Positions 1,464 to 21,365 of a DNA stretch of 32,000 nt are shown here, piece after piece. A model generated the notes under the pieces. The model searched no databases. It saw nothing but the letters and a program-made list of their open reading frames with translations, and had not been told where the DNA came from. This DNA is from Nitrosomonas europaea (GTDB lineage Bacteria > Pseudomonadota > Gammaproteobacteria > Burkholderiales > Nitrosomonadaceae): assembly GCF_900167395.1 (NCBI RefSeq), contig NZ_FUWK01000011.1, positions 1 to 32,000 of the forward strand, written 5' to 3'. The first letter of the stretch is position 1, and every line of letters starts with the position of its first letter. A program made the translations under genes and the position numbers.

Positions 1464-2900
1464 ATGTCCATCCGAATCAAATTATTCCTGGCCTTTCTGC
1501 TGACTACGTTCGTAGTGGTGATGGGGATGCATTTTTTCACCCGTTGGTCCCTGGAGAAAGGATTCACCGAGTTCATCGAAAAAAGACAGCAGGAACGGCT
1601 GGATAAAATCATCGATGTACTGGAGGAACACTATGCTGAGCACCGTGGCTGGGGAGAGCTGGCCGGAAACAAGCAACACTGGATTTCGTTATTGTGGCAT
1701 GCCGGCCCGCACCGGCATCGTCCGCCGAAGTGGATTATCGAACAGGCACAGCATGAGCCCGATCGACAGTGGCCACCAGCAGTAACACCCGGAACAGCCG
1801 AAAGAAAGTGGTCTCCATTCGAGTTACGGGTAATACTGCTGGATGCAGATCGATCGATTCTGTTCGGGCGGAAGGAACTGATTTCTCAACTGAGCCTGCA
1901 TCCTGTTCAGTATGAACACCGGACGGTCGGGTTTCTTGGCCTGTTGCCAGGAAACCCGGTCAGTCAGGCCAGCGACATTTATTTCATGGAACAACAGGCC
2001 GACTTTTTCTTCTGGATTGCGTTGACCATGGTAGTACTGTCTGCACTGATCGCTTGGTTGATGGCCTATCACCTCGGACGGCCGCTCAAGCAGATCGCAG
2101 CGGTGGTACAAAGGCTGGCGACGGGGGATTACAAAGCCAGACTACCTGTCATATCGAAGGATGAAATGGGCCAACTGGCACTGAATTTCAATGATACGGC
2201 TGCTGCACTGGAGCAAGCAGAACAAAGTCGCAGACGGTGGGTGGCCGATATTTCTCATGAATTGCGTACACCACTGGCCGTTTTGCGTGGTGAGCTGGAA
2301 GCCATCCTGGATGGGGTTCACCCATTGACTCCCGCAGCGATAGAATCCCTGTCCGGTGATGTGCTGCGGCTCAATCGTCTGACAGAAGATCTTTACCAGC
2401 TTGCTTTATCCGATCAGGGTGCATTGAGTTACCGGAAAGTACTGCTCGACCCCGTACCCTTGCTGCGAGAAGATCTGGCAACGTTCACAACTGATTTCAA
2501 TCATAAGCAGATCAGTGTCAGATGGATCAACCGGCTGTTCAAACCTGTACTGGTCAATGCTGATCCTGACCGGTTATCACAATTGTTCCGCAATCTGCTG
2601 ACCAACAGTCTGAACCATACGGATGCGAGAGGACAACTGGAAATCACGGTTCAGCGCCTGGCAGACAAGCTGGTGATCGAACTGGCGGACAGCAGTCCCG
2701 GTGTCTCGGATCAGGATATCGCGCATCTGTTCGATCGTTTCTATCGTGTCGATCATTCACGCAACCGGCATCTGGGAGGAGCCGGCCTGGGGTTGGCCAT
2801 CTGCAGCAATATCGTCAGAGCGCATGAAGGAACGCTGATGGCATCCCATTCGGCTCTGGGCGGTCTGGCGATACATATCGAGCTGCCAATTACGCCATGA
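1464..2900 (+). CDS. baeS: Envelope-stress sensor histidine kinase, BaeS-like
   Basis: Two TM segments flank a periplasmic domain. HAMP region, H-box SHELRTPLAVLRGELEA, and N/G boxes (LLTNSLNHT, GGAGLGLAIC). 4-bp ATGA overlap with the downstream BaeR-like regulator. Confidence 0.75.
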   Translation: MSIRIKLFLAFLLTTFVVVMGMHFFTRWSLEKGFTEFIEKRQQERLDKIIDVLEEHYAEHRGWGELAGNKQHWISLLWHAGPHRHRPPKWIIEQAQHEPDRQWPPAVTPGTAERKWSPFELRVILLDADRSILFGRKELISQLSLHPVQYEHRTVGFLGLLPGNPVSQASDIYFMEQQADFFFWIALTMVVLSALIAWLMAYHLGRPLKQIAAVVQRLATGDYKARLPVISKDEMGQLALNFNDTAAALEQAEQSRRRWVADISHELRTPLAVLRGELEAILDGVHPLTPAAIESLSGDVLRLNRLTEDLYQLALSDQGALSYRKVLLDPVPLLREDLATFTTDFNHKQISVRWINRLFKPVLVNADPDRLSQLFRNLLTNSLNHTDARGQLEITVQRLADKLVIELADSSPGVSDQDIAHLFDRFYRVDHSRNRHLGGAGLGLAICSNIVRAHEGTLMASHSALGGLAIHIELPITP

Positions 2901-3586
2901 GCCGTATTCTGATCGTCGAAGATGAACCCAGGCTAGCCAGACTGGAAGCCGATTATCTGCAGCATGCCGGTTTCCAGACTCATTGCCTGAGTCAGGGGCT
3001 AGAAGTGATCCCCTGGCTGAAGGAAAATACTGTCGAACTGATATTGCTGGATCTGATGGTACCGGGGCGGGATGGTCTCGATATCTGCCGCGATATTCGC
3101 AGTTTCAGCCAGGTGCCGGTCATCATAGTGACCGCACGAATCGAGGAAATCGACCGTTTGCTGGGACTGGAAATGGGAGCGGATGATTATATCTGCAAGC
3201 CTTTCAGTCCCAGAGAAATGGTTGCACGCGTCAAGGCTGTGTTGCGCAGACTGCAGCCGCCCGCCCCGAACTCGGCGCAGCAGGCGCTCACACTCTCCCC
3301 TCAAAGTTTCAAGGTCCAATACGATGGGCGAGAAATCGAGCTGACTGCCGTTGAATTTCAGTTGCTCTATACGTTATATCAGCAACCGGGGCGTATTTTC
3401 TCGCGCGCCAGACTGATGGATCTGATCTATCAGGATCAGCGCATCGTTTCAGACAGAACGATAGACAGCCACATCAAGAAGCTGAGGAAAAAAATTGCTG
3501 AACTGATTCCGGAAAAAGAAGTGATCTGTTCAGTCTATGGCGCGGGTTATCGCTATGATCCACAATCTGTCGAGCCCGAAGAATAA
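2897..3586 (+). CDS. baeR: OmpR-family response regulator, BaeR-like
   Basis: The receiver domain (ILIVEDEP...LILLDLMVPGRDGL...IIVTARIEEIDRLLGLEMGADDYICKPFSPREMVARVKAVLRR) closely matches E. coli BaeR as I remember it. C-terminal winged-helix domain present. Confidence 0.8.
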   Translation: MSRILIVEDEPRLARLEADYLQHAGFQTHCLSQGLEVIPWLKENTVELILLDLMVPGRDGLDICRDIRSFSQVPVIIVTARIEEIDRLLGLEMGADDYICKPFSPREMVARVKAVLRRLQPPAPNSAQQALTLSPQSFKVQYDGREIELTAVEFQLLYTLYQQPGRIFSRARLMDLIYQDQRIVSDRTIDSHIKKLRKKIAELIPEKEVICSVYGAGYRYDPQSVEPEE

Positions 3587-3665
3587 CGATCCGGTACGGG
3601 ACTTCGTCGCTTCAACTTTCCCACTCATCATTTAACAATGCGATCCTCGCCGTAAGGCGAAAGGT

Positions 3666-5228
3666 TTATTTCACTTTCACTTCGGTTTCATCACTGCCAT
3701 CCGCGAGAGATCGGATCGGTTCGATCAGATTCTCACCACCCGAAGGCGTATCGATACCCAGCAAAACGTGGCTTCTCCGGTAGCCGTAAAGAAAATAAAA
3801 AATCAAGCCGATTCCGGTCCAGACTGGAAACACCAGTTTGGCATCCATCGGTAAAAACAGAAAAAGAATCAGACAACCGCCAATGGCAAGCGGCCCCACC
3901 AGCCAGATCATGGGCGTCCTGAAAGGCCTGGGACGATTTTTGTCTCTGACTCGCAGAATCATGACCGTCAATGCCACGACCAGAAAAGCGAACAATGTTC
4001 CGGAGTTGGAAATATTTGCAAGCTTACCCACCGGCAGGAAAGCTGCTGCTGCCATTACGCCGACACCGGTAACCAGCGTAACGATATACGGGGTTTTGAA
4101 GCGCGGATGGATGCGACTCAATACTTCCGGCAGCAAACCATCACGCGACATGACGAAAAAAATACGCGTCTGTCCGAACAGCATCATGAGAATCACCGAG
4201 GGAAGTGCCAGGAAAGCAGCCAGACCAAGCAGGTTACCAATTTTCTCCCAGCCTATTTCACGCAACACATGCGCCAGCGCTTCATGCGAGCAAACCACCG
4301 GTTGCTGCCCTGCTGCCGCAAGTGATTTGCACTGCGCAGCCATTTCCCTGGAACCGGGAGCGAGCCCCTCGCCTGCGGCATCGACCAGTGGCTGTGCACC
4401 CACTGCGCCGATCACCCCGGCAGATACCAGTAAATAAAACAACGTACACAGCAGCAATGAGCTGATCAGAGCGATCGGAAGATTGCGTTGCGGATCTTTT
4501 GTTTCTTCCGCTGCGGTTGATACCGCATCAAAACCGACATATGCGAAAAAAATGGAAGCAGCCGCAGCAACGACACCCGAAGTTCCCAGTGGCAGAAAAG
4601 GGTCGAAATGGTTCATGTCGGTAGCCGGCAGTGCCAGTGCAATGAACGCCGTCAGAGCGATGATTTTGACTGCAACGAGTATGGCATTGAACATGGCGCT
4701 CTCTCGTGTTCCGATGATCAGCAGGCCGACGACCAGCAGACAGATGACAACCGCAGGCAGATTGATGATACCCCCGGCAAACGGCCCGTTCGCCAGCACA
4801 TAGGGAATTTCGAATCCCAGCGAGGCATTATTCAGCAACCCGACGAAATAGCCCGACCAGCCTACGGCCACTGCCCCGGCTGCAACAGAATATTCCAGTA
4901 TCAACGCCCATCCCACCATCCATGCGATCAGTTCACCAAGCACGGCGTAGGAATAGGTATAAGCAGACCCGGATACCGGTACCATTGAAGAAAGCTCGGA
5001 ATAGCAGAGTGCGGCCACTGCACAAACGAAACCGGCAATGACAAAAGCAATCATCATACCGGGGCCGGCTTTTTGTGCTGCCTCGGCAGTCAGCACAAAA
5101 ATACCTGTGCCGATAATCGCTCCCACCCCCAGCAGCGTCAACTGCCACACACCCAGAGAACGGTGAAGACTTTTCTTTTCGGCTGTAGCCAGAATGGCAT
5201 CTAGCGATTTTACGCGCCAGAAGATCAT
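3666..5228 (-). CDS. Amino acid permease (APC superfamily, cationic amino acid transporter-like)
   Basis: 520 aa, multi-TM. The N-terminus MIFWRVKSLDAILATAEKKSLHRSLGVWQLTLLGVGAIIGTGIF is typical of APC/YhdG-type permeases. Confidence 0.85.
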   Translation of the reverse strand: MIFWRVKSLDAILATAEKKSLHRSLGVWQLTLLGVGAIIGTGIFVLTAEAAQKAGPGMMIAFVIAGFVCAVAALCYSELSSMVPVSGSAYTYSYAVLGELIAWMVGWALILEYSVAAGAVAVGWSGYFVGLLNNASLGFEIPYVLANGPFAGGIINLPAVVICLLVVGLLIIGTRESAMFNAILVAVKIIALTAFIALALPATDMNHFDPFLPLGTSGVVAAAASIFFAYVGFDAVSTAAEETKDPQRNLPIALISSLLLCTLFYLLVSAGVIGAVGAQPLVDAAGEGLAPGSREMAAQCKSLAAAGQQPVVCSHEALAHVLREIGWEKIGNLLGLAAFLALPSVILMMLFGQTRIFFVMSRDGLLPEVLSRIHPRFKTPYIVTLVTGVGVMAAAAFLPVGKLANISNSGTLFAFLVVALTVMILRVRDKNRPRPFRTPMIWLVGPLAIGGCLILFLFLPMDAKLVFPVWTGIGLIFYFLYGYRRSHVLLGIDTPSGGENLIEPIRSLADGSDETEVKVK

Positions 5229-5433
5229 GAACCCTCTCCTTCAATAAAAACAGATAGTTACAAAATCCCTGAATTTAGCGGGAGATAGTGTACAAGAAAT
5301 ACCATGACCATAAGACCGAAATCAGGACAAAAATACCTGTGTCTGCGTCTGGTTATCTGCATGTTCAGGCTTGGCAACATGACAACCGATTGAACATCGG
5401 GAACATATTTGAGTCAGATTGTGTTCCTGCATC

Positions 5434-5451
5434 TTTCACATTCTTTTCACA
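5434..5451 (+). promoter_or_regulatory. Direct repeat TTTCACA-N4-TTTCACA (11-bp register), candidate OmpR-family (BaeR-like) binding site upstream of the Spy-like gene
   Basis: TTTCACA occurs at 5434-5440 and 5445-5451, about 100 bp upstream of the ATG at 5548. One helical-turn spacing is typical of winged-helix response regulators. No experimental support. Confidence 0.3.
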
Positions 5452-5547
5452 ATCTCTGCAAAGTATTTGCAAATTGGCAAAGTATAGTTGTCATCAAGGG
5501 CGGAAAACATTCCGTTCTGTTTCTGAAAATCAACCAGGAGGTTCATC

Positions 5548-5907
5548 ATGAACAAAAAACTTATCGGTATCGTTCTCGCGCTGGCATTTCCTTTGGCGGT
5601 TACTGCCAACCCGGGAGAGCACAAACATGATCATGAACAATACCGGGCGAAGAAAATAGAACGGCTGGACAAAGAGTTGTCCCTGACTGACGACCAGAAA
5701 TCCAGGATTGACACACTCTTCAAACAAAATGGAGAAAAATTCAAGGCGATCCGCGAGGAAACCCAGTCCCAACTGAAAACCATTCTGACACCTGAGCAGT
5801 ATTCCAAACTGCAGGAACTGAAACAGCGCCGGCAGGAACAGTGGCACAAAAAACATCAGGAGAAACTGCAAGAAAGAAAACAGGAACAGTCAGGTACAAC
5901 ACAGTAA
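5548..5907 (+). CDS. Periplasmic Spy/CpxP-family (LTXXQ motif) chaperone-like protein
   Basis: AGGAGG Shine-Dalgarno 7 nt upstream. Signal peptide MNKKLIGIVLALAFPLAVTA. Two LTxxQ motifs (LSLTDDQKSRI, LTPEQYSKL). Highly charged helical sequence. Confidence 0.75.
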   Translation: MNKKLIGIVLALAFPLAVTANPGEHKHDHEQYRAKKIERLDKELSLTDDQKSRIDTLFKQNGEKFKAIREETQSQLKTILTPEQYSKLQELKQRRQEQWHKKHQEKLQERKQEQSGTTQ

Positions 5908-5934
5908 CAACAAAAACATTCACTATTCACTCCG

Positions 5935-5973
5935 CCTGCAATGGTCTCCTATCGCTACCGGCCATTGCAGGCC
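5935..5973 (+). terminator. Perfect 11-bp inverted repeat stem-loop (gcctgcaatgg / ccattgcaggc, 17-nt loop); possible terminator of the Spy-like gene
   Basis: Read directly from the sequence. It lies 28 nt after the stop at 5907 and abuts the stop of the rdgC remnant. No T-tract follows. Confidence 0.35.
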
Positions 5974-5975
5974 AT

Positions 5976-6221
5976 TCATTCGCTGGCTGTTCCGCCCAGC
6001 GCCTCCATCAACTCCGGCAACAATTGCCGCAATTCTTCCGTCATCAGAAAAAAACTGCTGTCAAACTGCTCTTCAGCTGTTTCAGCCGGTTCCCGGTCGA
6101 TATCAAGCAAGACCGACCACTTCAACTGCAAGTTACTGTCCAGAATATGGGATTTTATTCCTATGATGTAGTTCAACCGGACTGGGCTATCAAATAACTT
6201 TCCTCCTTTGGCATGAGCCAC
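5976..6221 (-). pseudogene. Duplicated, diverged 3' end remnant of rdgC (about the last 60-75 codons)
   Basis: The peptide ...ILDSNLQLKWSVLLDIDREPAETAEEQFDSSFFLMTEELRQLLPELMEALGGTASE aligns with the C-terminus of the intact RdgC at 9448-10332 (...ILDENLQLKRLTLLDIDREPAETAEEQFDSNFFLMTEELRQLLPDLVEILGGMTAD). The RdgC N-terminal 200+ aa are absent. Confidence 0.85.
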
Positions 6222-6620
6222 TCTCCTTTATAAAGAAAAAAGCAGCATCGTATGTGAAATACACCACATCTTAGAATCAAGTACCGTCATACCATCGCAA
6301 CAGCAGCATGATATCAATACCCTGATGCCATATATCCAATGACAACCTTTGCCTTATGGAAGCAAAAAAGTTATTAAATAAATTTAGTCTGAGTACCGTT
6401 AACACCGACTCCGGTCAGAAAAGTGCATTATTCGTATTCCCAGATATGACACATAGATAATCTGCCAGCTTGCCACCCGCGATTAATGAAACAGATATGA
6501 AGTCAATCACGGGTACATTGAAATCAGGAAGGCATTTCCTGACGAGTATTCTTAAGTAACAGGTTTTTATCATCCGGTTACTTGAGAATTTATTTAAATA
6601 GCATAAAAAGGAACTTATAA

Positions 6621-7982
6621 ATGATTCTAAGAAGCTGGGCCAGAGGAGTCACATTAGCAACAATATGCATGTTTTCACTCTCTTCCGGAGTAATCCTTGC
6701 TAAAAACAATCGTCCGACACCATTACCGACGTATCAGTACCCTGATGTTTACAATAATTACCTGCAGCCTGTAGCAACCGCAATAGATTATCACTCCGGG
6801 ATGGTTTATCTCTTTAACTATGAAAATGACAAGCTGATTATCGTTGATCCGACAAGCCTCAGCGGTTGGCCTGGGAATGTTCCATTACAACATACTCTCG
6901 TGTTCCCTGAAGGAGATAAGATTTTTATCACATCTGATAATACGGAAGAGCATGCTGCTTACATTATCATATTGAAAGTAAACGATATTAACTGGGATGC
7001 AGGAACAGTCTCACTTGCAGTAGAAACCGTAGTAGCGGCAGATAATCCGGGGACACCAACAGAATTTCCGTTTGTTGAACCCGTTAACAATGTCCAAGCC
7101 ATCCCCAACTGGCTAGTAGGGAGAGGAACAACTCAGATACATGGTCCCACAATATTACCCTACTCAGATTTTGTCTATCTGACTGAACTCACTTCAGACA
7201 GGATACGTGTCATCAACCGTAAAACAAACGAGTTTGTAAGTGGCGTAGATCCCATCGCCATACCTGGTTATACAGAACAAACGCATGGTATCAACTTCAA
7301 TAGGTCCGGAACCATTGGTCTTGGAACCGGATATTTCTTTGATAACAGCGTTATCGACGTTTATAAACCTAATAGAGAAACAGGCGAGCTGCAAACGATT
7401 GGCCAGATCAGACTGGGCGATGAAAAACGGCATGCAGCGTTTACCCATTTTGTATATTGGCTGGATGAGCGATATGCTGTAACTGCTTCCATGCAATTTG
7501 ATAAAACTTCACTTACCCCCACTACTACTAAAAAGATCATCCCACCCAGTGTATGGCTGCTTGATACTTTGGAAGGGACTGCAACAAAAATTCTCGACCA
7601 TACCAATCATGCAAATGGCAAGGGTATTTTCCGCTCTCCTTCCGATATCGCAGTGGTCAATGGCAAGCTCTATATTGCGGAAGAGGATTCGCTTGATTAC
7701 ACATTTGCCAACGATGGATACATTTCTGTATTCGATCTGACCGATCGCTACAAGCCACGATTCCTGAAAAGGCTTAAACCTGGTCGGGAACTGCCCACCG
7801 GTTACGCAGTGGCCCACACAATCAGCCCGACACCGGATAACCGTTATCTGATAGTCGCGAGCTGGGTTTCAGGTTATGTACTAAAAATCGATACAGAAAC
7901 AGATACCGTTGTCAAAATCTGGGGACCGAATGACGGTCTGATCAAACCACATGGTATCTATACTGCCGGCGGTCTTCGCTGA
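6621..7982 (+). CDS. Secreted beta-propeller (YVTN/lactonase-like repeat) protein with blade-associated histidines; function unknown
   Basis: Signal peptide (ATICMFSLSSGVILA). Repeated strand-like segments with His-containing motifs (TQIHGPT, EQTHGINF, AFTHFVYW, AVAHTISP, IKPHGIY). Followed directly by a SCO1-like gene. Confidence 0.55.
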   Translation: MILRSWARGVTLATICMFSLSSGVILAKNNRPTPLPTYQYPDVYNNYLQPVATAIDYHSGMVYLFNYENDKLIIVDPTSLSGWPGNVPLQHTLVFPEGDKIFITSDNTEEHAAYIIILKVNDINWDAGTVSLAVETVVAADNPGTPTEFPFVEPVNNVQAIPNWLVGRGTTQIHGPTILPYSDFVYLTELTSDRIRVINRKTNEFVSGVDPIAIPGYTEQTHGINFNRSGTIGLGTGYFFDNSVIDVYKPNRETGELQTIGQIRLGDEKRHAAFTHFVYWLDERYAVTASMQFDKTSLTPTTTKKIIPPSVWLLDTLEGTATKILDHTNHANGKGIFRSPSDIAVVNGKLYIAEEDSLDYTFANDGYISVFDLTDRYKPRFLKRLKPGRELPTGYAVAHTISPTPDNRYLIVASWVSGYVLKIDTETDTVVKIWGPNDGLIKPHGIYTAGGLR

Positions 7983-8113
7983 TTGTAGTGCAGGAAACCG
8001 ATCTATCTTCTTTTTTATCCAGAAATCATCAGATAAAAATCAGGATAGATCGGTTTAAAAGTAAATACAGCATACAAAAACCGTTCAGAATGATTGATGA
8101 AAAGACAGATAAC

Positions 8114-8710
8114 ATGAAATTGAGAATCTCACGAAGCTACTGTTTTCAGGTTATTACTACCCTATTTCTTATTTTTGTACAAGCTGATATCAGAGCAGCA
8201 ACTATCACGTTATCCCGTCCGGTATCGTTACAGGCAGAAACGATTACTCACCTGAAACAAGCGGATACAACCAATACCAATCAGTGGAAGCTGGTCGTTT
8301 TTGGTTTCACTCACTGCAAAGATGTCTGCCCGATGTCGCTTGCTAATTTATCTATGCTGGTTAAAGCAGCAGTCAGTGAACAGATCGAGCTCAATGGGGT
8401 TTTTGTCACAGTTGACCCGGATAGAGATACAGAAGAGATTTTATCCGGTTATACAAAAGGCTTTGGTCCTGGCATTACTTATTTACGCTTTGAAGGAGAA
8501 GAGCTTGAGCATTTCAAAAATGCTTTTCAGGTAGAGGTTGTCTTCTATACAAAGAATGCAGGTAATCAAACCCACTATCAGGTTGATCACAGTACTACAG
8601 CTTTCCTGATTGATCCGACAGGAAAAATCAGGGTAATTTTTGATGCATTGAAAGATGCTGTCGATGTAGCCAGAATCTTTAAAGATAACAAGGGATTATT
8701 CAAATCATGA
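8114..8710 (+). CDS. SCO1/SenC-family copper chaperone (thioredoxin-like)
   Basis: Start chosen at ATG 8114 (MKLRISRSYCFQVITTLFLIFVQADIRA, signal/anchor). CxxxC motif in FGFTHCKDVCP and the conserved downstream His (YQVDHSTTAFLIDPTGKI), as in SCO1/SenC/PrrC. Confidence 0.8.
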   Translation: MKLRISRSYCFQVITTLFLIFVQADIRAATITLSRPVSLQAETITHLKQADTTNTNQWKLVVFGFTHCKDVCPMSLANLSMLVKAAVSEQIELNGVFVTVDPDRDTEEILSGYTKGFGPGITYLRFEGEELEHFKNAFQVEVVFYTKNAGNQTHYQVDHSTTAFLIDPTGKIRVIFDALKDAVDVARIFKDNKGLFKS

Positions 8711-9336
8711 ATAGAGCTTTGATAGCAGTAGTACTGCTCATGGTCATGGGATCTGTTTCCGGCATGAGAATAAATCCGGATCCTCGGGTAGTTGTTTCTT
8801 TTATGGATAAATCCATTGCACCTGAACTGGATATTTTACGTGTAATGGCAGATATTTCGCCCGACAACCACCATCTTGTATTCCAAGTTAAAACACGGGG
8901 AGAACGTATACAGGGAAACGACCATGATTATCTGCTTCTTCACATCACACATGGAAAAACTTATGTTCTTCTTTTACCTATCAATAAGGAAAAAGAAAAT
9001 CAGATGCTGGTATATGAACGCTTACCTCAACCCGATGACGATGATCTCCTCATTCTTGGCAAATTCAAGGGAAATTCGCACTTGACAAACTTTAATATCA
9101 CTTCCATTTTTCGGGGAGGAGAATTCAGTGTGCCGCTAGACTGGATTGATTTCAATACAAATTTCAGTTTTGATGCTTATACAGTTCAAGCCAGGATCAA
9201 AGGGGATACGCTGAAAATCAGTAAAGTATACGATTGGGCAAGAAAGGGAAAAACACACAATAATGAAAAGCCACTCTCTGCTATTACATTGCTTAATAAA
9301 ATCTGTGCTCCCAAAAGTAATAATCAGCGGCTCTGA
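8707..9336 (+). CDS. Hypothetical secreted protein (no family recognised)
   Basis: ATGA overlap with the SCO1-like gene suggests translational coupling. Signal peptide MNRALIAVVLLMVMGSVSG. No motif I can name. Confidence 0.55.
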   Translation: MNRALIAVVLLMVMGSVSGMRINPDPRVVVSFMDKSIAPELDILRVMADISPDNHHLVFQVKTRGERIQGNDHDYLLLHITHGKTYVLLLPINKEKENQMLVYERLPQPDDDDLLILGKFKGNSHLTNFNITSIFRGGEFSVPLDWIDFNTNFSFDAYTVQARIKGDTLKISKVYDWARKGKTHNNEKPLSAITLLNKICAPKSNNQRL

Positions 9337-9356
9337 CTATAGTAATGAAACCATCT

Positions 9357-9397
9357 GAATGTAACCAAACAAAACATTTATTTGGTTACATTCTTTT
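9357..9397 (+). terminator. Rho-independent terminator (13-bp perfect stem gaatgtaaccaaa/tttggttacattc followed by TTTT)
   Basis: Read directly: stem 9357-9369 and 9381-9393, T-run 9394-9397. Located between the convergent 8707-9336 gene and rdgC. Confidence 0.7.
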
Positions 9398-9447
9398 ATA
9401 AGAAATACTGGAAACAACGTTTTATCAGAGAAGCACTACTCTGGGCG

Positions 9448-10332
9448 CTAGTCAGCTGTCATTCCACCTAATATCTCAACCAAGTCCGGCAACAATTGCC
9501 GCAATTCTTCCGTCATCAGAAAAAAATTGCTGTCAAACTGCTCTTCAGCTGTTTCAGCCGGTTCCCGGTCGATATCGAGCAAAGTCAGCCGTTTCAGCTG
9601 CAGATTTTCATCCAGAATGAACGAGATTTTGTCTCGCCAGGTCATCGCCAGCCTGATGACTTCCTTACCCGTCCGGACATGCCGGGTGATTTCCTGTGGA
9701 TCGGGTGACTGCCGGATATAGCTCACTGAAACCTTCTTATCCTCACGACTGCGGAAAATACTGTCACTATCGACCGAAAAAATGGCAGGCGGATCATCGC
9801 CTGAAAGCCATGCCGTCATGGCGGATGTCGGTGCCATAGTTGTCCTGATGCGTTTCAGCCCGATACCAGTCGATTTGATGAATGCTTCAATCAGGGCATC
9901 CGCTTTAGAAGCACTTGCGCCTTCAACAATGAACCAGCCACCCACCGGATCGATCCATGCATGACTCCGCTGCCGGATGGCAAACGCACGCGATAACAGT
10001 TCACGATAAGCTGCTTCCTTGATTTCTTTCATTTGTTTGCGGCCAGGCGCATAACCCTGATGCGATTCCATTTCCTGAGCACGTACTTTGGCCAGCTGAT
10101 TGACGACGGATGCAGGCAGCAGCTTTTTCTCAGTTCCCAGCGCAATCAGCATCTGCTGTCCGTAGCTGTAAACCAGATCGGCCTCTGCGATCCCCGGTGG
10201 AACCCACCCCCGGCTTTGGGGTTCCAGCCCCAGACAACCCTGCAAGGTTTGTTTTGCCAGATACGCTTCAAGTTCGTCCGAGGTAATCACTTCACCGGCA
10301 AGACGGTAAATCAGTAAATTTCTAAACCACAT
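9448..10332 (-). CDS. rdgC: Recombination-associated protein RdgC
   Basis: 294 aa with the characteristic N-terminus MWFRNLLIYRL and overall RdgC-like sequence. Confidence 0.9.
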   Translation of the reverse strand: MWFRNLLIYRLAGEVITSDELEAYLAKQTLQGCLGLEPQSRGWVPPGIAEADLVYSYGQQMLIALGTEKKLLPASVVNQLAKVRAQEMESHQGYAPGRKQMKEIKEAAYRELLSRAFAIRQRSHAWIDPVGGWFIVEGASASKADALIEAFIKSTGIGLKRIRTTMAPTSAMTAWLSGDDPPAIFSVDSDSIFRSREDKKVSVSYIRQSPDPQEITRHVRTGKEVIRLAMTWRDKISFILDENLQLKRLTLLDIDREPAETAEEQFDSNFFLMTEELRQLLPDLVEILGGMTAD

Positions 10333-10479
10333 ATACTCGTATCAATCGAAAATTCCATCAGAACAGAAGGCAAGAAATGCAGTATAAAAAGAAGAATCGC
10401 TCACAGCAGGAGGTTGCATGACTGGCAAAGAGGGTAATCTTTGTTTTTGTACAAAGCAGATTCCGAAAAGCTGTTTTTT

Positions 10480-10555
10480 TGGCGCCCTGGAGACGAATCG
10501 AACGTCCGACCTACCCCTTAGGAGGGGGTCGCTCTATCCCCTGAGCTACCAGGGC
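10480..10555 (-). tRNA. tRNA-Arg (anticodon CCT), CCA encoded
   Basis: Hand-folded reverse complement: GCCCTGG-TA-GCTC AGGGGAT AGAGC-G-ACCCC CTCCTAA GGGGT-AGGTC-GGACG TTCGATT CGTCT-CCAGGGC-G-CCA. This gives a 7-bp acceptor stem, a TTCGA T-loop and anticodon CCT. Confidence 0.9.
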
Positions 10556-10631
10556 GGGGGCTGCATTTTACGCCAAAATGCCGGGTGAACGAAATCCATA
10601 GCTGCTCCCGGAACAGGAAGAAATCAGCCTG

Positions 10632-11435
10632 CTACCAGATTTCCCACCAGGATTTTCCTTTCACTGCGCCGGAATCTGTGAGATAGATACTTTCCGGGAA
10701 ATTTTTTCTGATGACCTTTTCCACGTCTTCACGCAAATCGGTCATACCGAGTTCACCGTAGGCTACCGCCATGATATACAGAGCATCCTCCGTGGCAGGG
10801 GTCTGCGGATATTCCTCCAGTATGAACTGGGCGCGCTTGATGGCAGCCACATAAGCTTTCCGCTTCATGTAATATTGTGCGACGTGAATTTCGCCTCTTG
10901 CCAGTGCATTGACCAGGTACGCCATACGCTGAAGCGCATCGGGCGTATATTTGCTGTCCGGATAACGTGTCACCAGTTGCTTCAGACTTTCGAACGACTC
11001 CCGTGAAGCTTTGGCATCCCGTTCACTCATATCCTGTTTGATGATCTTGTGAGTGATATATCCCATCAGGCCCTGATCATCGTTAAAGCTTGCCAGGCCC
11101 TTGATATAATAGGCGTAATCAATATTCTGGTGATGAGGATAAAGCTGGATGAACCGCTCTGCCGCAGCAATGGCTGAAGCGTGCTCCTGATCCTTATAAT
11201 AGGCGTAGGCTATTTCGAGCTGCGCCTGCTGGGCATAACGTCCATAGGGGTAACGAGCCTCCAGTGCTTCGAACAGTTTGACCGCAGCTGCATAGTTACC
11301 TTCGTTGAGTTCGTTTTTAGCCTCGACATAGAACTTGCTCGCAGACCATTTACTGTGATCAACCGTTTTCTCAGATAAGATGCCGCATGCAGCCAGCATT
11401 ACCACCAACCACCCTGCCAAAAATTGTCGCAACAT
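10632..11435 (-). CDS. bamD: Outer membrane protein assembly factor BamD (TPR lipoprotein)
   Basis: Start chosen at the Met giving MLRQFLAGWLVVMLAACG (lipobox LAAC). TPR-like repeats. Divergent from rluD, as in many proteobacteria. Confidence 0.85.
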   Translation of the reverse strand: MLRQFLAGWLVVMLAACGILSEKTVDHSKWSASKFYVEAKNELNEGNYAAAVKLFEALEARYPYGRYAQQAQLEIAYAYYKDQEHASAIAAAERFIQLYPHHQNIDYAYYIKGLASFNDDQGLMGYITHKIIKQDMSERDAKASRESFESLKQLVTRYPDSKYTPDALQRMAYLVNALARGEIHVAQYYMKRKAYVAAIKRAQFILEEYPQTPATEDALYIMAVAYGELGMTDLREDVEKVIRKNFPESIYLTDSGAVKGKSWWEIW

Positions 11436-12468
11436 GATGAACCGTCTCATTAACGAGCAAGATGGGCGCAATTATAGCGCAAAGCCCGACTCATCCGCAG
11501 CCGGCAGTCAGGAGAATGAAAACACCATCGAACTGACTGTACCCGATAATCTCGCAGGGCTGCGCCTGGATCAGGCCTTGGCGCAACTGCTTCCCCAGTG
11601 GTCACGCAGCCGGTTACAAGGATGGATCGAACAAAAATGTGTCAGCGTGGATAGCGCGGCAGCAACCTGCAAACAGAAGGTATGGGGGGGAGAATCCATT
11701 CGTGTAATTGCCGGCCAGACTGAAAACGATCAAAGCCATCAGGCGGAGGCCATTCCACTCAAAATCCTGTTCGAAGATGACCACCTGATTATCATCGATA
11801 AACCTGCCGGCCTGGTCGTCCATCCGGGAAACGGTAACTGGCATGGAACCCTGCTGAACGCACTGCTCAATCATGCCCCGCAGCTCAGCCAGGTACCACG
11901 CGCCGGTATCGTTCACCGGCTGGACAAGGATACCACCGGCCTGCTGGTCGTCGCTAAAACGATCGAGGCACAGTTCGATCTGGCCAGACAATTGCAGCAA
12001 CGCACTGTCAAACGCCATTATCTCGCACTCGTGCTAGGTAAACTTGAAAAAGATGGCGTAGTAGATGCGCCGATTGGCAGACACCCCATCCACCGCACCC
12101 GCATGGCAGTCGTTCAGAATGGCAAACCGGCACGCACGCATTACCGGGTGCTGGAAAAATTTACTGCCAGCACATTGCTGCACTGCAGCCTGGAAACCGG
12201 GCGCACACACCAGATTCGCGTTCATCTGCTGTCCATCGGCCATCCACTTGCAGGAGATCCGGTATATGGCAGAACATCCCCTGATCCATCGACAGCAGAT
12301 GCAGTTGTACGCCTGCCCAGACAAGCGCTGCATGCCTGGCAGCTCGAACTGACACACCCTCACAGCGGACAAATTCTACTTTGGGAATCCCCACTGCCGG
12401 ACGATATGGCCGCTTTATTGCAGGCAATACGCAACCTGCCTCATTCCTCTGTTTCCAGGCCACTATAA
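11434..12468 (+). CDS. rluD: 23S rRNA pseudouridine synthase RluD (RluA family)
   Basis: S4-like N-terminal domain (GLRLDQALAQLLPQWSRSRLQGWI) and catalytic motif HRLDKDTTGLLVVAK. The start is uncertain (11434/11437, or 11380 in the ORF track). Confidence 0.85.
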   Translation: MMNRLINEQDGRNYSAKPDSSAAGSQENENTIELTVPDNLAGLRLDQALAQLLPQWSRSRLQGWIEQKCVSVDSAAATCKQKVWGGESIRVIAGQTENDQSHQAEAIPLKILFEDDHLIIIDKPAGLVVHPGNGNWHGTLLNALLNHAPQLSQVPRAGIVHRLDKDTTGLLVVAKTIEAQFDLARQLQQRTVKRHYLALVLGKLEKDGVVDAPIGRHPIHRTRMAVVQNGKPARTHYRVLEKFTASTLLHCSLETGRTHQIRVHLLSIGHPLAGDPVYGRTSPDPSTADAVVRLPRQALHAWQLELTHPHSGQILLWESPLPDDMAALLQAIRNLPHSSVSRPL

Positions 12469-12678
12469 ACGGAATTTGTTTACCTGTTCTCCATGAACTT
12501 CGCCCAAAACGCAGATAAACCATGGTTTCTTGCCCGAAATAAAACAGTCGGCCTATTTATTCGATGCCAGCCCGACGGTACAATGTCACCCTTCGTACTT
12601 GCCTGATTTTTCCCAGTCGGGCACATGCATTCATACAAATCGTTTCCCAAGTAAATAAACACCTTTTGGAGAAAAACT

Positions 12679-14085
12679 GTGGCAGCTGATGTTTTAAAAA
12701 TGATTCAGGATCATGAAGTCAAGTTCGTTGATCTGCGCTTCACCGACACCAACGGCAAAGAACATCATGTCACGGTCCCCGCACATACCTTCGATACCGA
12801 TAAATTTGAAGATGGCCACGCATTCGACGGATCCTCTATTGCCGGCTGGAAAAACATTCACGCGTCCGACATGCTGCTCATGCCCGACCCGGAAACCGCC
12901 GCACTGGATCCTTTCATGGAAGAAACCACACTGCTGCTGACCTGCGATGTCGTCGATCCTGCTGACGGGCAGGGATACAACCGTGATCCGCGCTCACTGG
13001 CCAAACGCGGTGAGACTTATCTGAAATCCACCGGTATCGGCGATATCGCCTACTTTGGCCCGGAGCTGGAATTTTTCATTTTTGATTCGGTCCGCTGGCA
13101 TACCGACATGTCCGGATGTTTCGTCAAAATCGAATCGGAAGAAGCTGCCTGGAGCTCCAAAAAACGCTACGAAAAAAGCAATAACGGTTATCGGCCCGCA
13201 GTCAAAGGCGGATACATGCCGGTACCGCCAGTGGATTCCCTGCACGACATCCGCTCGGCTATGTGCATGGTGCTTGATGAACTGGGCATTCCCGTCGAAG
13301 TTCATCACCATGAAGTCGCCAATGCCGGGCAGTGCGAGATTGGTACCCGTTTCAGCAGCCTGGTAAAACGTGCCGACTGGAACCAATTGATGAAATACGT
13401 CATCCACAATATCGCCGTTTCCTATGGCAAAACAGCGACATTCATGCCCAAACCGATCGTCGGTGACAATGGTTCCGGCATGCACGTCCATCAGTCGATC
13501 TGGAAAGAAGGCAAAAATCTGTTTGCCGGTAACGGCTATGCCGGTATGTCGGAAACCGCGCTGTATTACATCGGCGGCATTATCCGGCACGCCAAGGCAC
13601 TGAATGCCTTTGCCAATCCCGGTACCAATTCGTATAAAAGACTGGTGGCCGGTTTCGAAGCGCCGGTCAACATCGCCTACTCCGCCAGCAACCGGTCAGC
13701 CGCTGTTCGCATCCCCTATGCCAGCAGCCCGAAGCAGCGCCGTATCGAAATCCGTTTCCCGGATCCCAGCGCCAACCCTTATCTCACCTTTACTGCTCTG
13801 CTGATGGCGGGACTGGATGGTATTCAAAACAAAATCCATCCTGGCGACCCCATGGATAAAAACCTTTATGACCTGCCCCCGGAAGAAGCTTCGATGGTGC
13901 CCAATACCTGTGCTTCACTGGAAGAAGCGCTGGCAAGCTTGGATAGCGATCGTGAATTCCTGACACGCGGCAACGTATTCTCCAACGACATGATCGATGC
14001 TTTTATCAAGCTCAAGTCGGAAGAAGCGACATTATTGCGTACCACGACACACCCTGTTGAATTTGCCCTGTATTACAGTCTGTAA
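12679..14085 (+). CDS. glnA: Glutamine synthetase type I
   Basis: 468 aa. N-terminus ...[20 protein letters not shown], plus [10 protein letters not shown] and other GSI signatures. GTG start at 12679 is preceded by GGAG; an alternative ATG lies at 12700. Confidence 0.95.
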
Positions 14086-14240
14086 AAAAGCGATATTTAT
14101 CTGCGTTTATTCATAAGTCACCATACCAGCAGCCAGGCTTAGAATCTGACACATCCCGGATCGGATTCCGTGCTCTTCACCACCGTGGAACACGGAATTC
14201 CGGTTTGAAACTATCCATTTTAGAATCGGGGGTGTTCTCC

Positions 14241-14738
14241 ATGAAACGAACCTACTGCACCATCATGCTGACTGGAGCTCTGTCGTTCGGTCTTTCTACT
14301 GCCTGCACAGCTTCCGGTATCCATAAACTGGTGGATGAACGCGGGCGCGTCATTTTCACTAATGATCCTGCTAAAAATACCAGGCAAATTCAGTCATCCA
14401 AATCAGTGTCGGTAGTCCCCTCGCGCCGGAACGGCACCAGCACCGAACCTATCACAGTCGCCATTACCGGCAGCAATTACCCCAGAGTCAGCAAGCTCCA
14501 GCAGGACCAGCGAGACAGCAAACGCAGGCAGATACTTTCCCAGGAGCTTGCCAACGAAACCAGATTGCTGGAAGATGCCCTGAAAACCATTGATCTGACG
14601 CAACAGAAAACGGATAACTACTTACCAGGCCGCCCGTACTTTACGTCAGATCATTTCGATATTCTGCAGCTGCGCAATCAGGCCGCAGCACACGAACGCA
14701 ATATCGAAGCACTCAAAATGGAACTCAACAACCTTTAA
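14241..14738 (+). CDS. DUF4124-like secreted protein
   Basis: Start at MKRTYCTIMLTGALSFGLSTA (signal peptide). HKLVDERGRVIFTNDP resembles the DUF4124 motif (W/Y-x-D-x-x-G-x-x-x-F/Y-S/T-D). C-terminal coiled-coil-like region. Confidence 0.55.
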   Translation: MKRTYCTIMLTGALSFGLSTACTASGIHKLVDERGRVIFTNDPAKNTRQIQSSKSVSVVPSRRNGTSTEPITVAITGSNYPRVSKLQQDQRDSKRRQILSQELANETRLLEDALKTIDLTQQKTDNYLPGRPYFTSDHFDILQLRNQAAAHERNIEALKMELNNL

Positions 14739-14785
14739 TGCATCCCGGATGCAGGCAATTCAGTTCTGCAGCCTGATCCAAACAA

Positions 14786-16753
14786 CTAATTTCCCAGGCC
14801 CGGTACCTGGATTTCGGCTTCCTGCGCAAGATACACCCAGTCCACGATCTCCTGGCTGGGTGTATAACCGGGAACGAGTTGTTCCATCATCAACCGGATT
14901 ACGCTGACATCATTCACATTGAGCGCCACCTCCAGCGCACTCAGCTTGTCTTCCAGATCTGCCCAGGGAACGAACTCCTCACGTGCTTTCATGATTCGTG
15001 GATGTGAGGTCGGTTCCAGGTCATCACCGATCAGCAACTCTTCATAGAGTTTTTCTCCGGGACGTAAACCAGTAATCACGATTTCGATATCTCCTTCCGG
15101 ATTCTGCTCATCCCTGATTTTCAGTCCGGAGAGCTCAACCATGCGGTGTGCTAAATCAATGATCTTGACCGACTGCCCCATGTCCAGCACAAATACACCT
15201 CCCCCTTTCGCCATGGCTCCCGCCTGAATGACCAGTTGAGCGGCTTCCGGAATAGTCATGAAATAGCGGGTAATTTCAGGGTGAGTCAGCGTAATCGGGC
15301 CACCTTCACGGATCTGCCGGCGGAAGCGCGGTACCACCGAACCTGAAGAACCCAGTACATTGCCAAAACGCACTATGGAGAATCGGGTGGCGGAACCCCT
15401 GTCTGCAAGCGCCTGCAGCACCATTTCAGCCAAACGCTTGCTCGCACCCATGATATTGGTAGGCCGCACCGCCTTATCCGTACTGATCAGCACGAAATCC
15501 GCCACACCGTTCTCCTCAGCCGCCTGTGCGAGGCAAAGCGTACCCAGTGCGTTATTCTTGATGCCTTCCGCCGGATTGTGCTCCACCAGCGGTACATGTT
15601 TATAGGCCGCTGCGTGATAAACGGTATCAGGATGCCAGGTAGACATGATCTCGCACATTCGATCTTCATCCTGCACCGAAGCCAGAAGAGGTACCAGCAC
15701 GATCTCACGGCTGGCAAGCTTTTCCTCCAGCTCCTGGTGAATCAGATAAAGTGCAAACTCATTCTGCTCGATCAGCAACAGCCTGGCGGGTCCGACAGCA
15801 AGAATCTGGCGACACAACTCGCTGCCGATCGATCCGCCCGCTCCTGTCACCAGTACCACCTTGTCCAGGATATTCTTCGCCAGCAGGATATGGTTGGGCA
15901 TTACCGGCTCACGGCCAAGCAAATCATCGATATCCAGCTCACGCAGATCTGCAATACTGACTCTGCCCTGAATTAGATCCGCCATGCTGGGCAGGGTGCG
16001 CACCGAGACACGTGCACTGCGGATCTGGCTCAGGATTTCATTACGACGACGGCGCGAGATACCAGGCATCGCCAGCAGTACATCGCTGATGTTCAGCGTC
16101 AGAACCAGCCCGGTCAGATCACCTGGATTATAGATAGGCAAACCGTTGAGCACATGTCCGTGCAAACGATCGTCATCATCCAGAAATCCCACTACCTGTA
16201 TTTCCGGGCTGTTGGTCATGACCGAGGCCAGCTGACGACCCGTCCGGCCAACACCATAAATAAGGGCTTTGGGCTGGGAGGCGCGCTTCAGGATATTCTG
16301 GTATTGATCTCCCAGCCACACACGAGCCATTGCGCGCGATGCACCTACAAACAGCAGAAGCAGAATCGGCTGGATGATACCGACTGTTCGCGGAACACCC
16401 GGCAGCCCGATCACCGTAAACATGGATGCATAAGCCAGTCCGTAAATACCGATTGCACGTGCCACGGCCAGCAACGCCGGCCAGCCGCTGTACCGGAAGA
16501 TGGCGCGGTAAAGACCGGTTACGATAAAAATGGGCAGCGCCAGTACGACCGAAGCGGCCGCAGCCCGAACAGCACCTGTCGCCCAGTAGCCCTGTCCGGA
16601 AAAACTGATGAATTCACCCAAGCGCAGGTAATAAGCCAGCCATACCGTCAGAATACATAAACTGAGGTCAACTGAAAGCACAACCATACGTTTTGCCGTA
16701 CGGGGCAATGCCAGGACCGGAGATGCAAGCTGTGCAAGGTATTTTTCCAGCAT
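14786..16753 (-). CDS. Membrane-bound nucleotide-sugar 4,6-dehydratase/epimerase, CapD/WbpM/PglF family
   Basis: N-terminal TM segments followed by two Rossmann regions (VLVTGAGGSIGSEL; YHAAAYKHVP with the YxxxK motif). ATG at 16753 is preferred; the ORF track uses the GTG at 16762. Confidence 0.85.
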   Translation of the reverse strand: MLEKYLAQLASPVLALPRTAKRMVVLSVDLSLCILTVWLAYYLRLGEFISFSGQGYWATGAVRAAAASVVLALPIFIVTGLYRAIFRYSGWPALLAVARAIGIYGLAYASMFTVIGLPGVPRTVGIIQPILLLLFVGASRAMARVWLGDQYQNILKRASQPKALIYGVGRTGRQLASVMTNSPEIQVVGFLDDDDRLHGHVLNGLPIYNPGDLTGLVLTLNISDVLLAMPGISRRRRNEILSQIRSARVSVRTLPSMADLIQGRVSIADLRELDIDDLLGREPVMPNHILLAKNILDKVVLVTGAGGSIGSELCRQILAVGPARLLLIEQNEFALYLIHQELEEKLASREIVLVPLLASVQDEDRMCEIMSTWHPDTVYHAAAYKHVPLVEHNPAEGIKNNALGTLCLAQAAEENGVADFVLISTDKAVRPTNIMGASKRLAEMVLQALADRGSATRFSIVRFGNVLGSSGSVVPRFRRQIREGGPITLTHPEITRYFMTIPEAAQLVIQAGAMAKGGGVFVLDMGQSVKIIDLAHRMVELSGLKIRDEQNPEGDIEIVITGLRPGEKLYEELLIGDDLEPTSHPRIMKAREEFVPWADLEDKLSALEVALNVNDVSVIRLMMEQLVPGYTPSQEIVDWVYLAQEAEIQVPGLGN

Positions 16754-16761
16754 GATGTTCA

Positions 16762-17379
16762 CTACCCGGATTTTTTTCTTACGCGATCACCTGTACCACG
16801 CCCCAGTGCCGTCAGCAGGATGTATCTGAAACAGGATGTCAGCGATAATGTTTTGATCATCTGTGCATCGATTTCCGCCAGTAAAACGGGGGTAGACATA
16901 TCGATCCCCTGAATCTGCGCCAACCCCGTAATACCAGGGCGTACATCGAACACACCCCGAAGCTGCCGTTCCCTGATCAACTCATGCTGATTTGGCAGGC
17001 ACGGGCGGGGGCCCACCAGACTCATCTCCCCCTTGAGAACATTCCATAGCTGGGGCAATTCATCCAGCTTGGTTTGGCGCAGAAAACCGCCAAAAGGAGT
17101 CACTGCAGAGGCATCGGCCAGATGAGTGGCCACCGAAGCCGTCCCTGGCCGCATGGTACGGAATTTGACCAGAGTAAATGGTTGCTGCCGCCGGCCCACC
17201 CTGATCTGCCGAAACAGCGGGGAGCCGGTATCAAACAACCCGATTACGTAAAGAACCACCATAAGCGGCAAAGTCACCAGAATGCCCGGAATTACCAGCA
17301 CGATATCCAGTAAACGCAACATTACCTCTCGGTTCACGAAAAGCGGGCTTTCTCTTGTTTTGCCGCTCATCTGCCTCAC
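16762..17379 (-). CDS. Undecaprenyl-phosphate sugar phosphotransferase (bacterial sugar transferase family, PglC/WbaP C-terminal-like)
   Basis: 205 aa, one re-entrant/TM helix. Motifs [42 protein letters not shown] and RPGITGLAQ. Confidence 0.85.
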
Positions 17380-17380
17380 A

Positions 17381-18328: not shown

Positions 18329-18342
18329 TTCAACTACTCCAT

Positions 18343-19092: not shown

Positions 19093-19127
19093 GTAACAAT
19101 ATTCTCAAAGATACTCAATATTGCAAC

Positions 19128-20360: not shown

Positions 20361-20465
20361 ATCATCAATGGCAAAGTGGAAAAATTATTGCAATTGCCCC
20401 TTTTGACTACCTCTGTCTTTGCAGGCAAAGCAATCCAGTCATTCCATTTCCACCCGATTTGATGA

Positions 20466-20969: not shown

Positions 20970-21149
20970 GGTACAAACCGCATCTCCTGTGGAACTGGAT
21001 TGCCTCAATTTTCACGGTCTTCGTGAATCGCAACGTGACATGGCGATCCAGTCCCTGTACCGCCTGTCTCTCTGGATTGCTGCACTTCGTACTCCAAAGA
21101 CACAGCAGATCCAACCTCCGCAGTCTTTGCGAACCCTGCAAGGGTGAAG

Positions 21150-21340: not shown

Positions 21341-21365
21341 TTTCGGTTGAAAGATCATTTTTGAT

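Follow-up and report, generated by a model that had tools for sequence, protein, structure and literature searches.

A low-GC operon bracketed by two copies of the rdgC 3' end in Nitrosomonas europaea, a candidate cassette without its own recombinase

Prophage e14, a defective phage with its own integrase and excisionase, lies in the 3' end of icd in Escherichia coli K-12. Cis-mobilisable elements (CIMEs), such as those at the fda 3' end in Streptococcus thermophilus, derive from integrative and conjugative or integrative and mobilisable elements (ICEs and IMEs) and are mobilised by accretion with an element using the same site. In complex class 1 integrons, partial duplications of the 3' conserved segment (3'-CS) flank the cargo regions associated with the insertion sequence common region element ISCR1, owing to Campbell-type integration of circular intermediates. 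Here we describe a related arrangement in a 32,000-nt stretch of Nitrosomonas europaea DNA (contig NZ_FUWK01000011.1, positions 1 to 32,000; hereafter the window), in which a low-GC operon of three genes (g1, g2 and g3) lies between intact rdgC and a diverged second copy of the rdgC 3' end. Our best explanation, to which we give a probability of about 60%, is that the rdgC 3' end contains an insertion/deletion cassette of 3,472 bp (6147-9618 or, equivalently, 6003-9474), with a Campbell-type origin, a homogenised repeat core, reversible loss and exchange of cargo alleles among strains.

In comparisons the window strain is named ATCC 19718; its RdgC, g1 and g3 are exact-sequence matches to CAD84418, CAD84421 (Q82WZ0) and CAD84419, and the chromosome measures 2,812,094 bp. 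Compared loci carry L numbers where they have to be told apart: L084 is CP157069, L085 is CP054389, L087/L088 is GCA_021463265, L109 is the Ga0206106 metagenome-assembled genome (MAG) and L001 is the PE_soil1 lineage. Among genomes in which this site is empty, L004, L005, L007 and L009 are N. eutropha Nm24 and Nm57, strain HPC101 and one N. eutropha MAG, and L143-L146 are contigs here called PRO5-type, which include 'Betaproteobacteria bacterium PRO5'.

The duplicated 3' end of rdgC and its empty sites

Two copies of the rdgC 3' end lie in direct orientation, at 5976-6146/6161 and 9448-9618/9633. A reading of this DNA made from its letters alone (the sequence-only reading) had put the duplication at the last 60-75 codons; the direct repetition stands, and its measured length of ~57-62 codons falls at the low end. 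The intact gene (9448-10332, minus strand, 294 aa, CAD84418) encodes a complete RdgC (Pfam PF04381, E=6.4e-97, model positions 1-297 of 298; NCBIfam NF001463, 385 bits with a cut-off of 324) and appears to be a hybrid of a host 5' part and a cassette-borne tail. The remnant (5976-6161, minus strand) comprises approximately codons 233-294 and the stop codon; in alignments with orthologues its homology is weak beyond 6146 and continues across a 2-nt indel to ~6161 (~codon 233). With a repeat finder, the DNA repeat was detected as 5990-6146 versus 9462-9618, 84% identical at a spacing of 3,472 bp. The 81-aa open reading frame (ORF) over the remnant (5976-6221, minus strand) is identical to RdgC at 45 of 58 residues (78% amino acid identity, BLASTP E=4e-28) and matches the Pfam RdgC model at positions 240-297 of 298 (E=1.6e-8, 34.6 bits, cut-off 25), which disposes of the possibility, raised at the outset, that the remnant is unrelated to rdgC. 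This ORF is frameshifted in L084 and L088 although the DNA is 98% identical, and its disruption in near-identical strains indicates that it is non-coding and not a gene.

The remnant adjoins the gene of a Spy/CpxP-like periplasmic protein (spy, 5548-5907, plus strand; weak NCBIfam CpxP/Spy matches), the native neighbour of rdgC and convergent with it. The native hairpin terminator (5934-5972; -23.5 kcal/mol, z=-6.75) separates spy from the original rdgC end, and the same hairpin, CCTGCAATGG...CCATTGCAGG, directly follows rdgC in L005, L007, L009 and L144. From 6161/6110 to 5434, the remnant, hairpin and spy align in one piece with the rdgC 3' end, terminator and spy of L004, L005, L007 and L009. 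This collinearity with the empty-site junction indicates that the remnant next to spy is the displaced native end of rdgC and that the intact gene bears a replacement tail. The tail, consisting of the final 12 codons and the stop (DLVEILGGMTAD; 9448-9484, minus strand), has no counterpart in these four genomes, nor has the DNA beyond it, a spacer with its own hairpin (9357-9393). The corresponding protein ending, DLVE(I)LGGMT(A/V)D, is shared by every filled strain, the distant L001 and L109 among them, and is absent from the empty-site strains; the replacement tail therefore appears to travel with the cassette. No sampled lineage stands out as its source, since all differ from it at 12-18 of 37 positions and none is clearly closest.

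The divergence between the two copies is distributed unevenly, and the repeat is divided here into a 42-nt 5' flank (S1), a 92-nt core and a 37-nt 3' tail (S3). All parts lie on the minus strand. The copies differ at 15 of 42 positions in S1 (6105-6146 vs 9577-9618), at a single position of 92 in the core (6013-6104 vs 9485-9576) and at 19 of 37 in S3 (5976-6012 vs 9448-9484), a heterogeneity with a Fisher p of 7e-13. The near-identity of the core is not explained by selective constraint, because orthologues differ there by at least 13%. When compared with eight orthologues, the remnant S1 has 14-17 mismatches in 42 nt (orthologue pairs: median 9, maximum 14), while its S3 is ordinary with 11-17 in 37 (orthologue median 12); in the intact gene, S1 is ordinary (5-10 of 42) and the tail slightly high (12-18 of 37). 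The atypical segments are thus the remnant S1 and, just slightly, the intact tail, matching the segments that a Campbell-type model assigns to incoming DNA. The two ends of the remnant look unlike in age, as a reciprocal crossover predicts, a contrast that is suggestive at the shortness of these segments.

Precise empty sites were found in close relatives. Three RdgC variants in the same 90% cluster (P0152, P0162 and P0163) match ATCC 19718 to residue 282 bar one to three substitutions and then continue with ELMEALGGTASE, the tail of the remnant, which here ends a full-length RdgC. The P0152 contigs that were looked up (L143-L146) keep the synteny of the window on both sides, with spy 68 nt after rdgC. 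Window segments 3634-6146 and 9475-19335 both align to them with a subject overlap of 144 nt, meaning that exactly one 3,472-bp unit is missing. The empty allele combines an intact-type S1 with a remnant-type S3 (0/37 mismatches) and remnant-type downstream DNA (2/70). Such a structure would be expected of a site that has yet to undergo a reciprocal crossover in the repeat, or of one in which the crossover has been reversed, and with it both copies of the filled allele read as hybrids, suggestively so given the short segments. Apart from these precise cases, more distant empty sites occur in L003-L005, L007 and L009. The spy-rdgC interval was compared among relatives with a universally shared arrangement as the outcome that would speak against an insertion; the arrangement proved not to be universal. 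The DNA 3' of rdgC is a synteny breakpoint in the clade, occupied by a permease gene in L003 and by ribD in L002.

Divergence from the window flanks is 1.6% on the left and 3.0% on the right for the empty PRO5-type contigs, compared with ~7% for the filled L109 and ~10% for the filled L001/L095. This places the empty lineage within the filled ones, a pattern explained more parsimoniously by a single precise loss than by at least three gains, and we infer that the PRO5-type site arose by precise loss of the cassette. Filled strains also differ among themselves. A second remnant allele in L001, L085, L094 and L095 has the identical 5' boundary and S1 changes with a decayed core, which in L001/L085 carries 17-24 mismatches in 92 nt, spread along its length, a 2-nt deletion and a TAG stop. 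Lineage-specific core variants are common to both copies of L001, and the intact rdgC of L084 holds the G variant of the remnant. Together with the decayed allele, these shared variants point to a core whose copies evolve in concert, through gene conversion or through cycles of excision and re-integration. In L109, the remnant is cut at the core/S1 boundary and S1 is replaced (a later insertion sequence, IS, insertion); a 115-nt fragment (L109 7565-7680) stands in there for ~200 nt of the leader, and its reverse strand resembles, by eye, the C-terminal motif of an IS1595/ISXO2-type transposase.

The operon between the copies and its distribution

The three-gene plus-strand operon and the long leader seen between the copies in the sequence-only reading were both confirmed, and the low GC content then judged by eye has now been computed. 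It amounts to 0.409 over 6162-9447 and 0.377 in the leader, compared with 0.513 in the flanks, making the interval the lowest-GC 3.3-kb stretch of the window, and the GC content at third codon positions (GC3) is 0.36-0.41 in the interval genes versus 0.53-0.60 in neighbouring genes. The AT-rich leader/promoter region (6162-6620, plus strand, 459 nt) is specific to the N. europaea lineage.

The first gene, g1 (6621-7982, plus strand), encodes a secreted seven-bladed beta-propeller protein with a signal peptide, six invariant histidines (H91, H174, H222, H276, H399 and H444) and no Pfam family. It shows weak YVTN/YncE-type repeat similarity, and a PDB sequence search gave weak YncE matches alone. 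An AlphaFold model with 34 homologues is a confident seven-bladed propeller (predicted local distance difference test score, pLDDT, 87), for which Foldseek returned generic propellers at a template modelling (TM) score of ~0.5, thiocyanate dehydrogenase among them (TMq 0.56). The match to NCBIfam L-NosZ is faint (15 bits, cut-off 700). An assignment of g1 to the nitrous-oxide reductase or thiocyanate dehydrogenase type was rejected on these grounds, its TM scores of 0.5-0.56 being like those of unrelated propellers. Likewise, methanethiol oxidase/SBP56, the automatic UniRef name, was rejected as an automatic label alone, with no Pfam family at E<=0.01.

The second gene, g2 (8099-8710, plus strand), encodes an SCO1/SenC-family copper chaperone (Pfam PF02630, E=3.9e-30, 105 bits) in which the CKDVC (CxxxC) motif and the histidine of DHSTTAFLID are present. 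It has 204 aa from the ATG at 8099, in line with homologues of 204-206 aa; the longest ORF starts from a GTG at 7988. The product of g3 (8707-9336, plus strand) is a secreted protein modelled by AlphaFold as a beta-sandwich (pLDDT 80), with no significant structural relative in Foldseek, and its family is confined to ammonia oxidisers. Most likely, judging from gene neighbourhood and residue conservation, g1-SCO1-g3 is an ammonia-oxidiser-specific set of a periplasmic copper-dependent enzyme, its chaperone and a beta-sandwich partner. As a secreted seven-bladed propeller with six invariant histidines, encoded beside an SCO1/SenC gene, g1 resembles the Sco1-dependent periplasmic copper enzymes with beta-propeller domains (NosZ and thiocyanate dehydrogenase). 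It differs in that it contains no cupredoxin/CuA domain, shares 10-16% sequence identity and reaches no family threshold, and its structural matches are no better than those to generic YVTN or lactonase propellers. The g1-SCO1-g3 module did not turn up in literature searches on the locus tags, SenC, beta-propeller/copper or methanethiol oxidase, and the SenC discussed for ammonia oxidisers belongs to a separate sNOR cluster.

The g1-g2 spacer contains a hairpin (7995-8056, plus strand), an inverted repeat with 25-nt arms (-31.4 kcal/mol, z=-5.7), with a probable role in processing or attenuation of the mRNA; no other part of the operon varies as much from strain to strain as this spacer. Downstream of g3, an AT-rich hairpin followed by the U-run UUUUAU (9357-9393, plus strand) is the likely terminator of the operon. 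Just past it (~9399-9404), L084/L085 carry IS elements (10788-13027) with two transposase genes, one IS5-like and frameshifted and one encoding a 393-aa DDE protein.

Elsewhere, the operon was sought and found at other loci with different flanks. About 200 relatives of g1 are detectable at 60-90% identity, in Nitrosomonas, Nitrosospira, Nitrosovibrio, the gammaproteobacterial Nitrosococcus and a few MAGs, and nearly all organism-named members among 122 g3 relatives come from ammonia oxidisers. The order g1-SCO1-g3 is conserved across beta- and gammaproteobacterial ammonia oxidisers, and its genomic context differs in most species. Two other Nitrosomonas carry it beside rdgC with no remnant: in L006 it has the like orientation and is followed by a speD/speE fusion gene, and in L008 it is inverted and lies between rdgC and spy. 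In N. eutropha C91 it is found near pta, amid IS elements, an H-NS gene, a RES/Xre toxin-antitoxin pair and a TnpB fragment; in HPC101 it is flanked by an MliC-domain gene and by the gene of a LuxR-type (GerE) response regulator, lon lying a few kb farther on; in Nitrosospira multiformis it comes after dnaJ, with a second propeller paralogue; and in Nitrosococcus wardiae after the gene of a proton-pumping pyrophosphatase. Metagenome copies have further differing contexts. The cargo is atypical of a mobile element: it is a conserved three-gene module of ammonia oxidisers, whose locus differs in most species.

Within the C91 locus (L081, CP000450 2,093,540-2,110,901), the TnpB (Cas12f-like) fragment abuts g3 and inverted IS copies lie ~11 kb apart; the right-hand copies are absent from a second N. 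eutropha strain (L082). In N. multiformis (L089, CP000103, 7001-11316), two tandem propeller paralogues of 501 and 424 aa precede SCO1 and g3. The DNA shared with the N. eutropha copy is confined to window positions 6591-9334, and leaders and downstream spacers are unrelated between contexts. In every genome examined (L081, L091, L089, L090, L006, L008, L107 and L119) the GC content of the operon is below that of its surroundings, for example 0.39 vs 0.50 in N. eutropha and 0.43 vs 0.51 in N. wardiae, pointing either to a compositional bias inherent in the operon or to repeated transfer. No match to the operon was found in plasmid and phage collections. A recent transfer from HPC101 was considered and dismissed, since its g1 shares a 90% protein cluster with that of the window, yet the DNA is just ~80% identical.

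Alleles of the operon differ strongly among otherwise close strains. Between ATCC 19718, L084, L085 and L087/L088 the flanks are 99-100% identical, whereas 6300-8400, which runs from the end of the leader through g1 into the 5' part of g2, is just 67-93% identical, with at least three alleles and with breakpoints that differ for each pair. The g1 protein of the window is 92% identical to that of L084 and 83% to that of L088, and the L084 protein is 100% identical to that of L001, a lineage ~10% divergent; 8500-9200 of the window is 97-100% identical to L001. Because synonymous differences dominate, these are recombination mosaics and not products of local hypermutation, and lateral replacement of operon alleles appears to be frequent. 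The exact g3 allele of the window occurs elsewhere, and all ten places shown keep the window arrangement. In L087, a later IS insertion truncates g3.

Origin and loss of the cassette

In the explanation that we favour, a circular DNA carrying g1-SCO1-g3, the leader and a diverged ~185-nt copy of the rdgC 3' end would have undergone one reciprocal (Campbell-type) crossover with the chromosomal rdgC, yielding two hybrid copies. The working gene would then combine the host 5' part with the incoming tail, and the remnant would combine an incoming 'dead' 5' segment with the host tail, followed by the native terminator and spy. The exchange may have been carried out by RecA acting on the homology, or by an integrase provided in trans or since lost. 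The 92-nt core, to judge from the patterns in the sequences, would subsequently have been homogenised, either through gene conversion or through rounds of excision and re-integration. Another crossover between the copies could delete the cassette precisely and restore the original rdgC tail, which is the structure seen in the sister lineage, with loss as the presumed direction. Finally, the mosaic pattern shows that strains exchange cargo alleles through homologous recombination in the flanks.

Several points weigh against this explanation. The direction of change at the PRO5-type site is taken from the nesting of the empty lineage alone, and either a secondary precise loss or a retained ancestral empty site is possible; nesting is weak evidence here, because lateral exchange demonstrably occurs at the locus. 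The remnant-free L006 and L008 imply that not every arrival at the locus left a like scar. Neither a circular form, nor a hybrid attP-like junction, nor a donor element was seen. The contrast between an older S1 and a younger S3 comes from 42 and 37 nt in a gene whose tail is naturally variable, and even decay of a pseudogene followed by recombination with an empty-type allele could mimic it. For the cargo, the copper-enzyme reading draws on gene neighbourhood and conserved histidines only.

The architecture itself invites comparison with integrase-borne islands. The element is flanked by direct repeats derived from its target, as attachment sites attL and attR would be (5976-6146 vs 9448-9618), and the replacement tail, the low GC content and the precise empty site are as in classical cases. 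A degenerate, CIME-like island, whose integrase acted at the rdgC 3' end and was later deleted or works in trans, would leave this picture, and the array at 20-26 kb described below, in which repeated 3' ends and cargo likewise occur with no integrase, could point to a recombinase in trans. However, the sequence-only reading had already noted the lack of an integrase in the interval, and this held when Pfam and NCBIfam were scanned with all interval ORFs, leader fragments and the main ORFs (about 90 aa or longer) elsewhere in the 32 kb: no integrase or recombinase family matched among the tested ORFs of either the interval or the window. Nor was an integrase or gene fragment detected in the leader, where no stop-free segment in any of the six frames of 6150-6625 matched Pfam. 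The gene tables of the related loci examined, including the divergent filled L001 and L109, list no integrase next to the operon, and the transposases present are secondary IS insertions only. As a recombinase within or adjacent to the element is absent, it fails to qualify as an integrase island. Thus, of the early idea that a classical element had brought a replacement end into a gene 3' end, the insertion scar and the replacement tail are supported, and nothing shows the element to have been integrase-borne. Furthermore, a survey of 80 rdgC loci and 5 operon loci detected no rdgC remnant outside the N. europaea lineage, leading us to reject rdgC as a general attachment site; a literature search gave no rdgC-targeting island, and the decayed remnant allele retains no short, perfectly conserved core. 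We regard a lost or trans-acting integrase island as unlikely, though worth keeping in view. The tRNA-Arg(CCT) gene (10480-10555, minus strand), a further candidate target, was rejected: it lies 148 nt upstream of the rdgC start, on the side away from the insertion, and its 3' half has no second copy in the window, in agreement with the earlier estimate of an unduplicated gene ~150 bp beyond rdgC.

Alternatively, a linear Nitrosomonas fragment might have been acquired by homology-facilitated illegitimate recombination, with one crossover in rdgC and the other end joined at ~codon 233, in which case the remnant would be wholly recipient DNA. Such an event needs no recombinase, extensive homologous exchange among Nitrosomonas strains is evident at the locus, and a donor-type arrangement exists in L006, where rdgC is followed by the operon in matching orientation with no remnant. 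This explanation predicts a remnant of uniform age, whereas its 5' segment is far more diverged from the orthologues than its tail; in the decayed allele, too, the excess over orthologues is ~27% in S1 and ~12% in the core. The boundary of remnant homology is moreover in register with the intact gene, a coincidence for an illegitimate join but expected of a reciprocal exchange, and we consider such a join distinctly improbable. Sliding identity to other species along the rdgC body was evenly ~80% and uninformative as to a breakpoint within it. The operon could also be ancestral at the rdgC-spy junction, the repeat being a local duplication and the empty sites of N. eutropha, HPC101 and PRO5 all being deletions. 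The operon does adjoin rdgC in distinct lineages (the N. europaea group, L006 and L008), and the synteny breakpoint 3' of rdgC, with ribD in L002 and a permease gene in L003, would agree with this. Yet the orientation and junctions differ among the three configurations, in which leaders and downstream spacers are unrelated, the N. eutropha and HPC101 copies sit at other loci with different flanks, GC3 is 15-20 points under that of neighbouring genes, and a local duplication leaves the foreign tail of the intact gene unexplained. Ancestral presence with local duplication fits worst of the explanations and has very little chance of being correct.

Beyond the Campbell-type origin that we prefer, we can imagine a larger picture, which is speculative and which we would not expect to hold. 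The module would be an unrecognised periplasmic copper enzyme of ammonia oxidisers, acting for example on NO, NH2OH or another nitrogen-oxide intermediate, carried on a self-contained, recombinase-free cassette that moves between Nitrosomonas chromosomes as a non-replicating circle docking by homology at gene 3' ends; the rdgC repeat would be a docking scar and the array at 20-26 kb a second product.

Window surroundings and comparison with known systems

To the left of the locus, the window contains genes for a histidine kinase and a response regulator (1464-3586), an amino-acid permease (3666-5228, minus strand) and spy; to the right of the operon, rdgC and tRNA-Arg(CCT) are followed by bamD, rluD and glnA. 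Several relatives hold a second spy-like gene, ~60% identical, between the permease and response-regulator genes (L001 15958-16275, L008 17718-18065 and L006 13407-13745), where ATCC 19718 has just 80 nt. The longest ORFs of bamD and rluD (10632-11471, minus strand, and 11380-12468, plus strand) overlap head-to-head by ~90 nt, and the gene calls of relatives start later. Promoter and terminator scans gave counts no higher than shuffled expectation, and the tRNA was the sole structured-RNA match to Rfam over 5000-11000.

About 14 kb from the rdgC locus, within a polysaccharide-biosynthesis cluster, 19980-26373 forms an array of 3'-end repeats and cargo. The C-terminal ~35 codons of a small minus-strand ORF (20007-20360; WNWL..LY..GLYRQ..AGN..LWLAALFKRL, then stop) recur at 21189-21317, 23192-23301 and 26241-26373, and between the copies are found a ParE-like toxin with a helix-turn-helix antitoxin, a YhgA/Rpn-type (Transposase_31) gene, a HigB/HigA pair and an AIPR abortive-infection gene. 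Family scans of the window ORFs revealed no integrase in the array. The last copy lies just downstream of, and not within, the 368-aa 'gene X' (26376-27482). The likeness to the rdgC locus that had been pointed out, repeated 3' ends with cargo, is only partial: the repeated end belongs to the small ORF and not to gene X.

The rdgC locus is a natural example of how a cassette with no recombinase of its own can enter the 3' end of a housekeeping gene and, it appears, leave it again precisely. Public genomes cover filled, empty, decayed, re-homogenised, IS-interrupted and allele-swapped states, so that RecA-driven and integrase-driven turnover can be set against each other in a model nitrifier. 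Its cargo, CAD84419-CAD84421, is a conserved, uncharacterised and probably copper-dependent periplasmic module found almost entirely in ammonia oxidisers and laterally exchanged, and the absence of the operon from the rdgC locus in one N. europaea sublineage provides a ready-made comparison for phenotyping.

Among known systems, e14 in icd shares with the locus an insertion in the 3' end of a coding gene, a diverged working replacement tail, the original tail kept as a direct-repeat pseudogene, and relatives with empty sites. Unlike e14, the cassette has no recombinase, phage, plasmid or conjugation gene, and its cargo is a three-gene metabolic/periplasmic operon. CIMEs are alike in holding cargo between attL/attR-like repeats of a gene 3' end with neither integrase nor transfer genes, but neither the 80 rdgC loci nor the literature search revealed an ICE or IME that uses rdgC. 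In the ISCR1 case, as here, a direct duplication brackets the insert, both copies are hybrid and the event is reversible between the repeats; the cassette differs in having neither an ISCR nor another rolling-circle transposase. In these terms, the cassette reads as a recombinase-free, repeat-bounded islet in a gene 3' end, whose scar is itself textbook.

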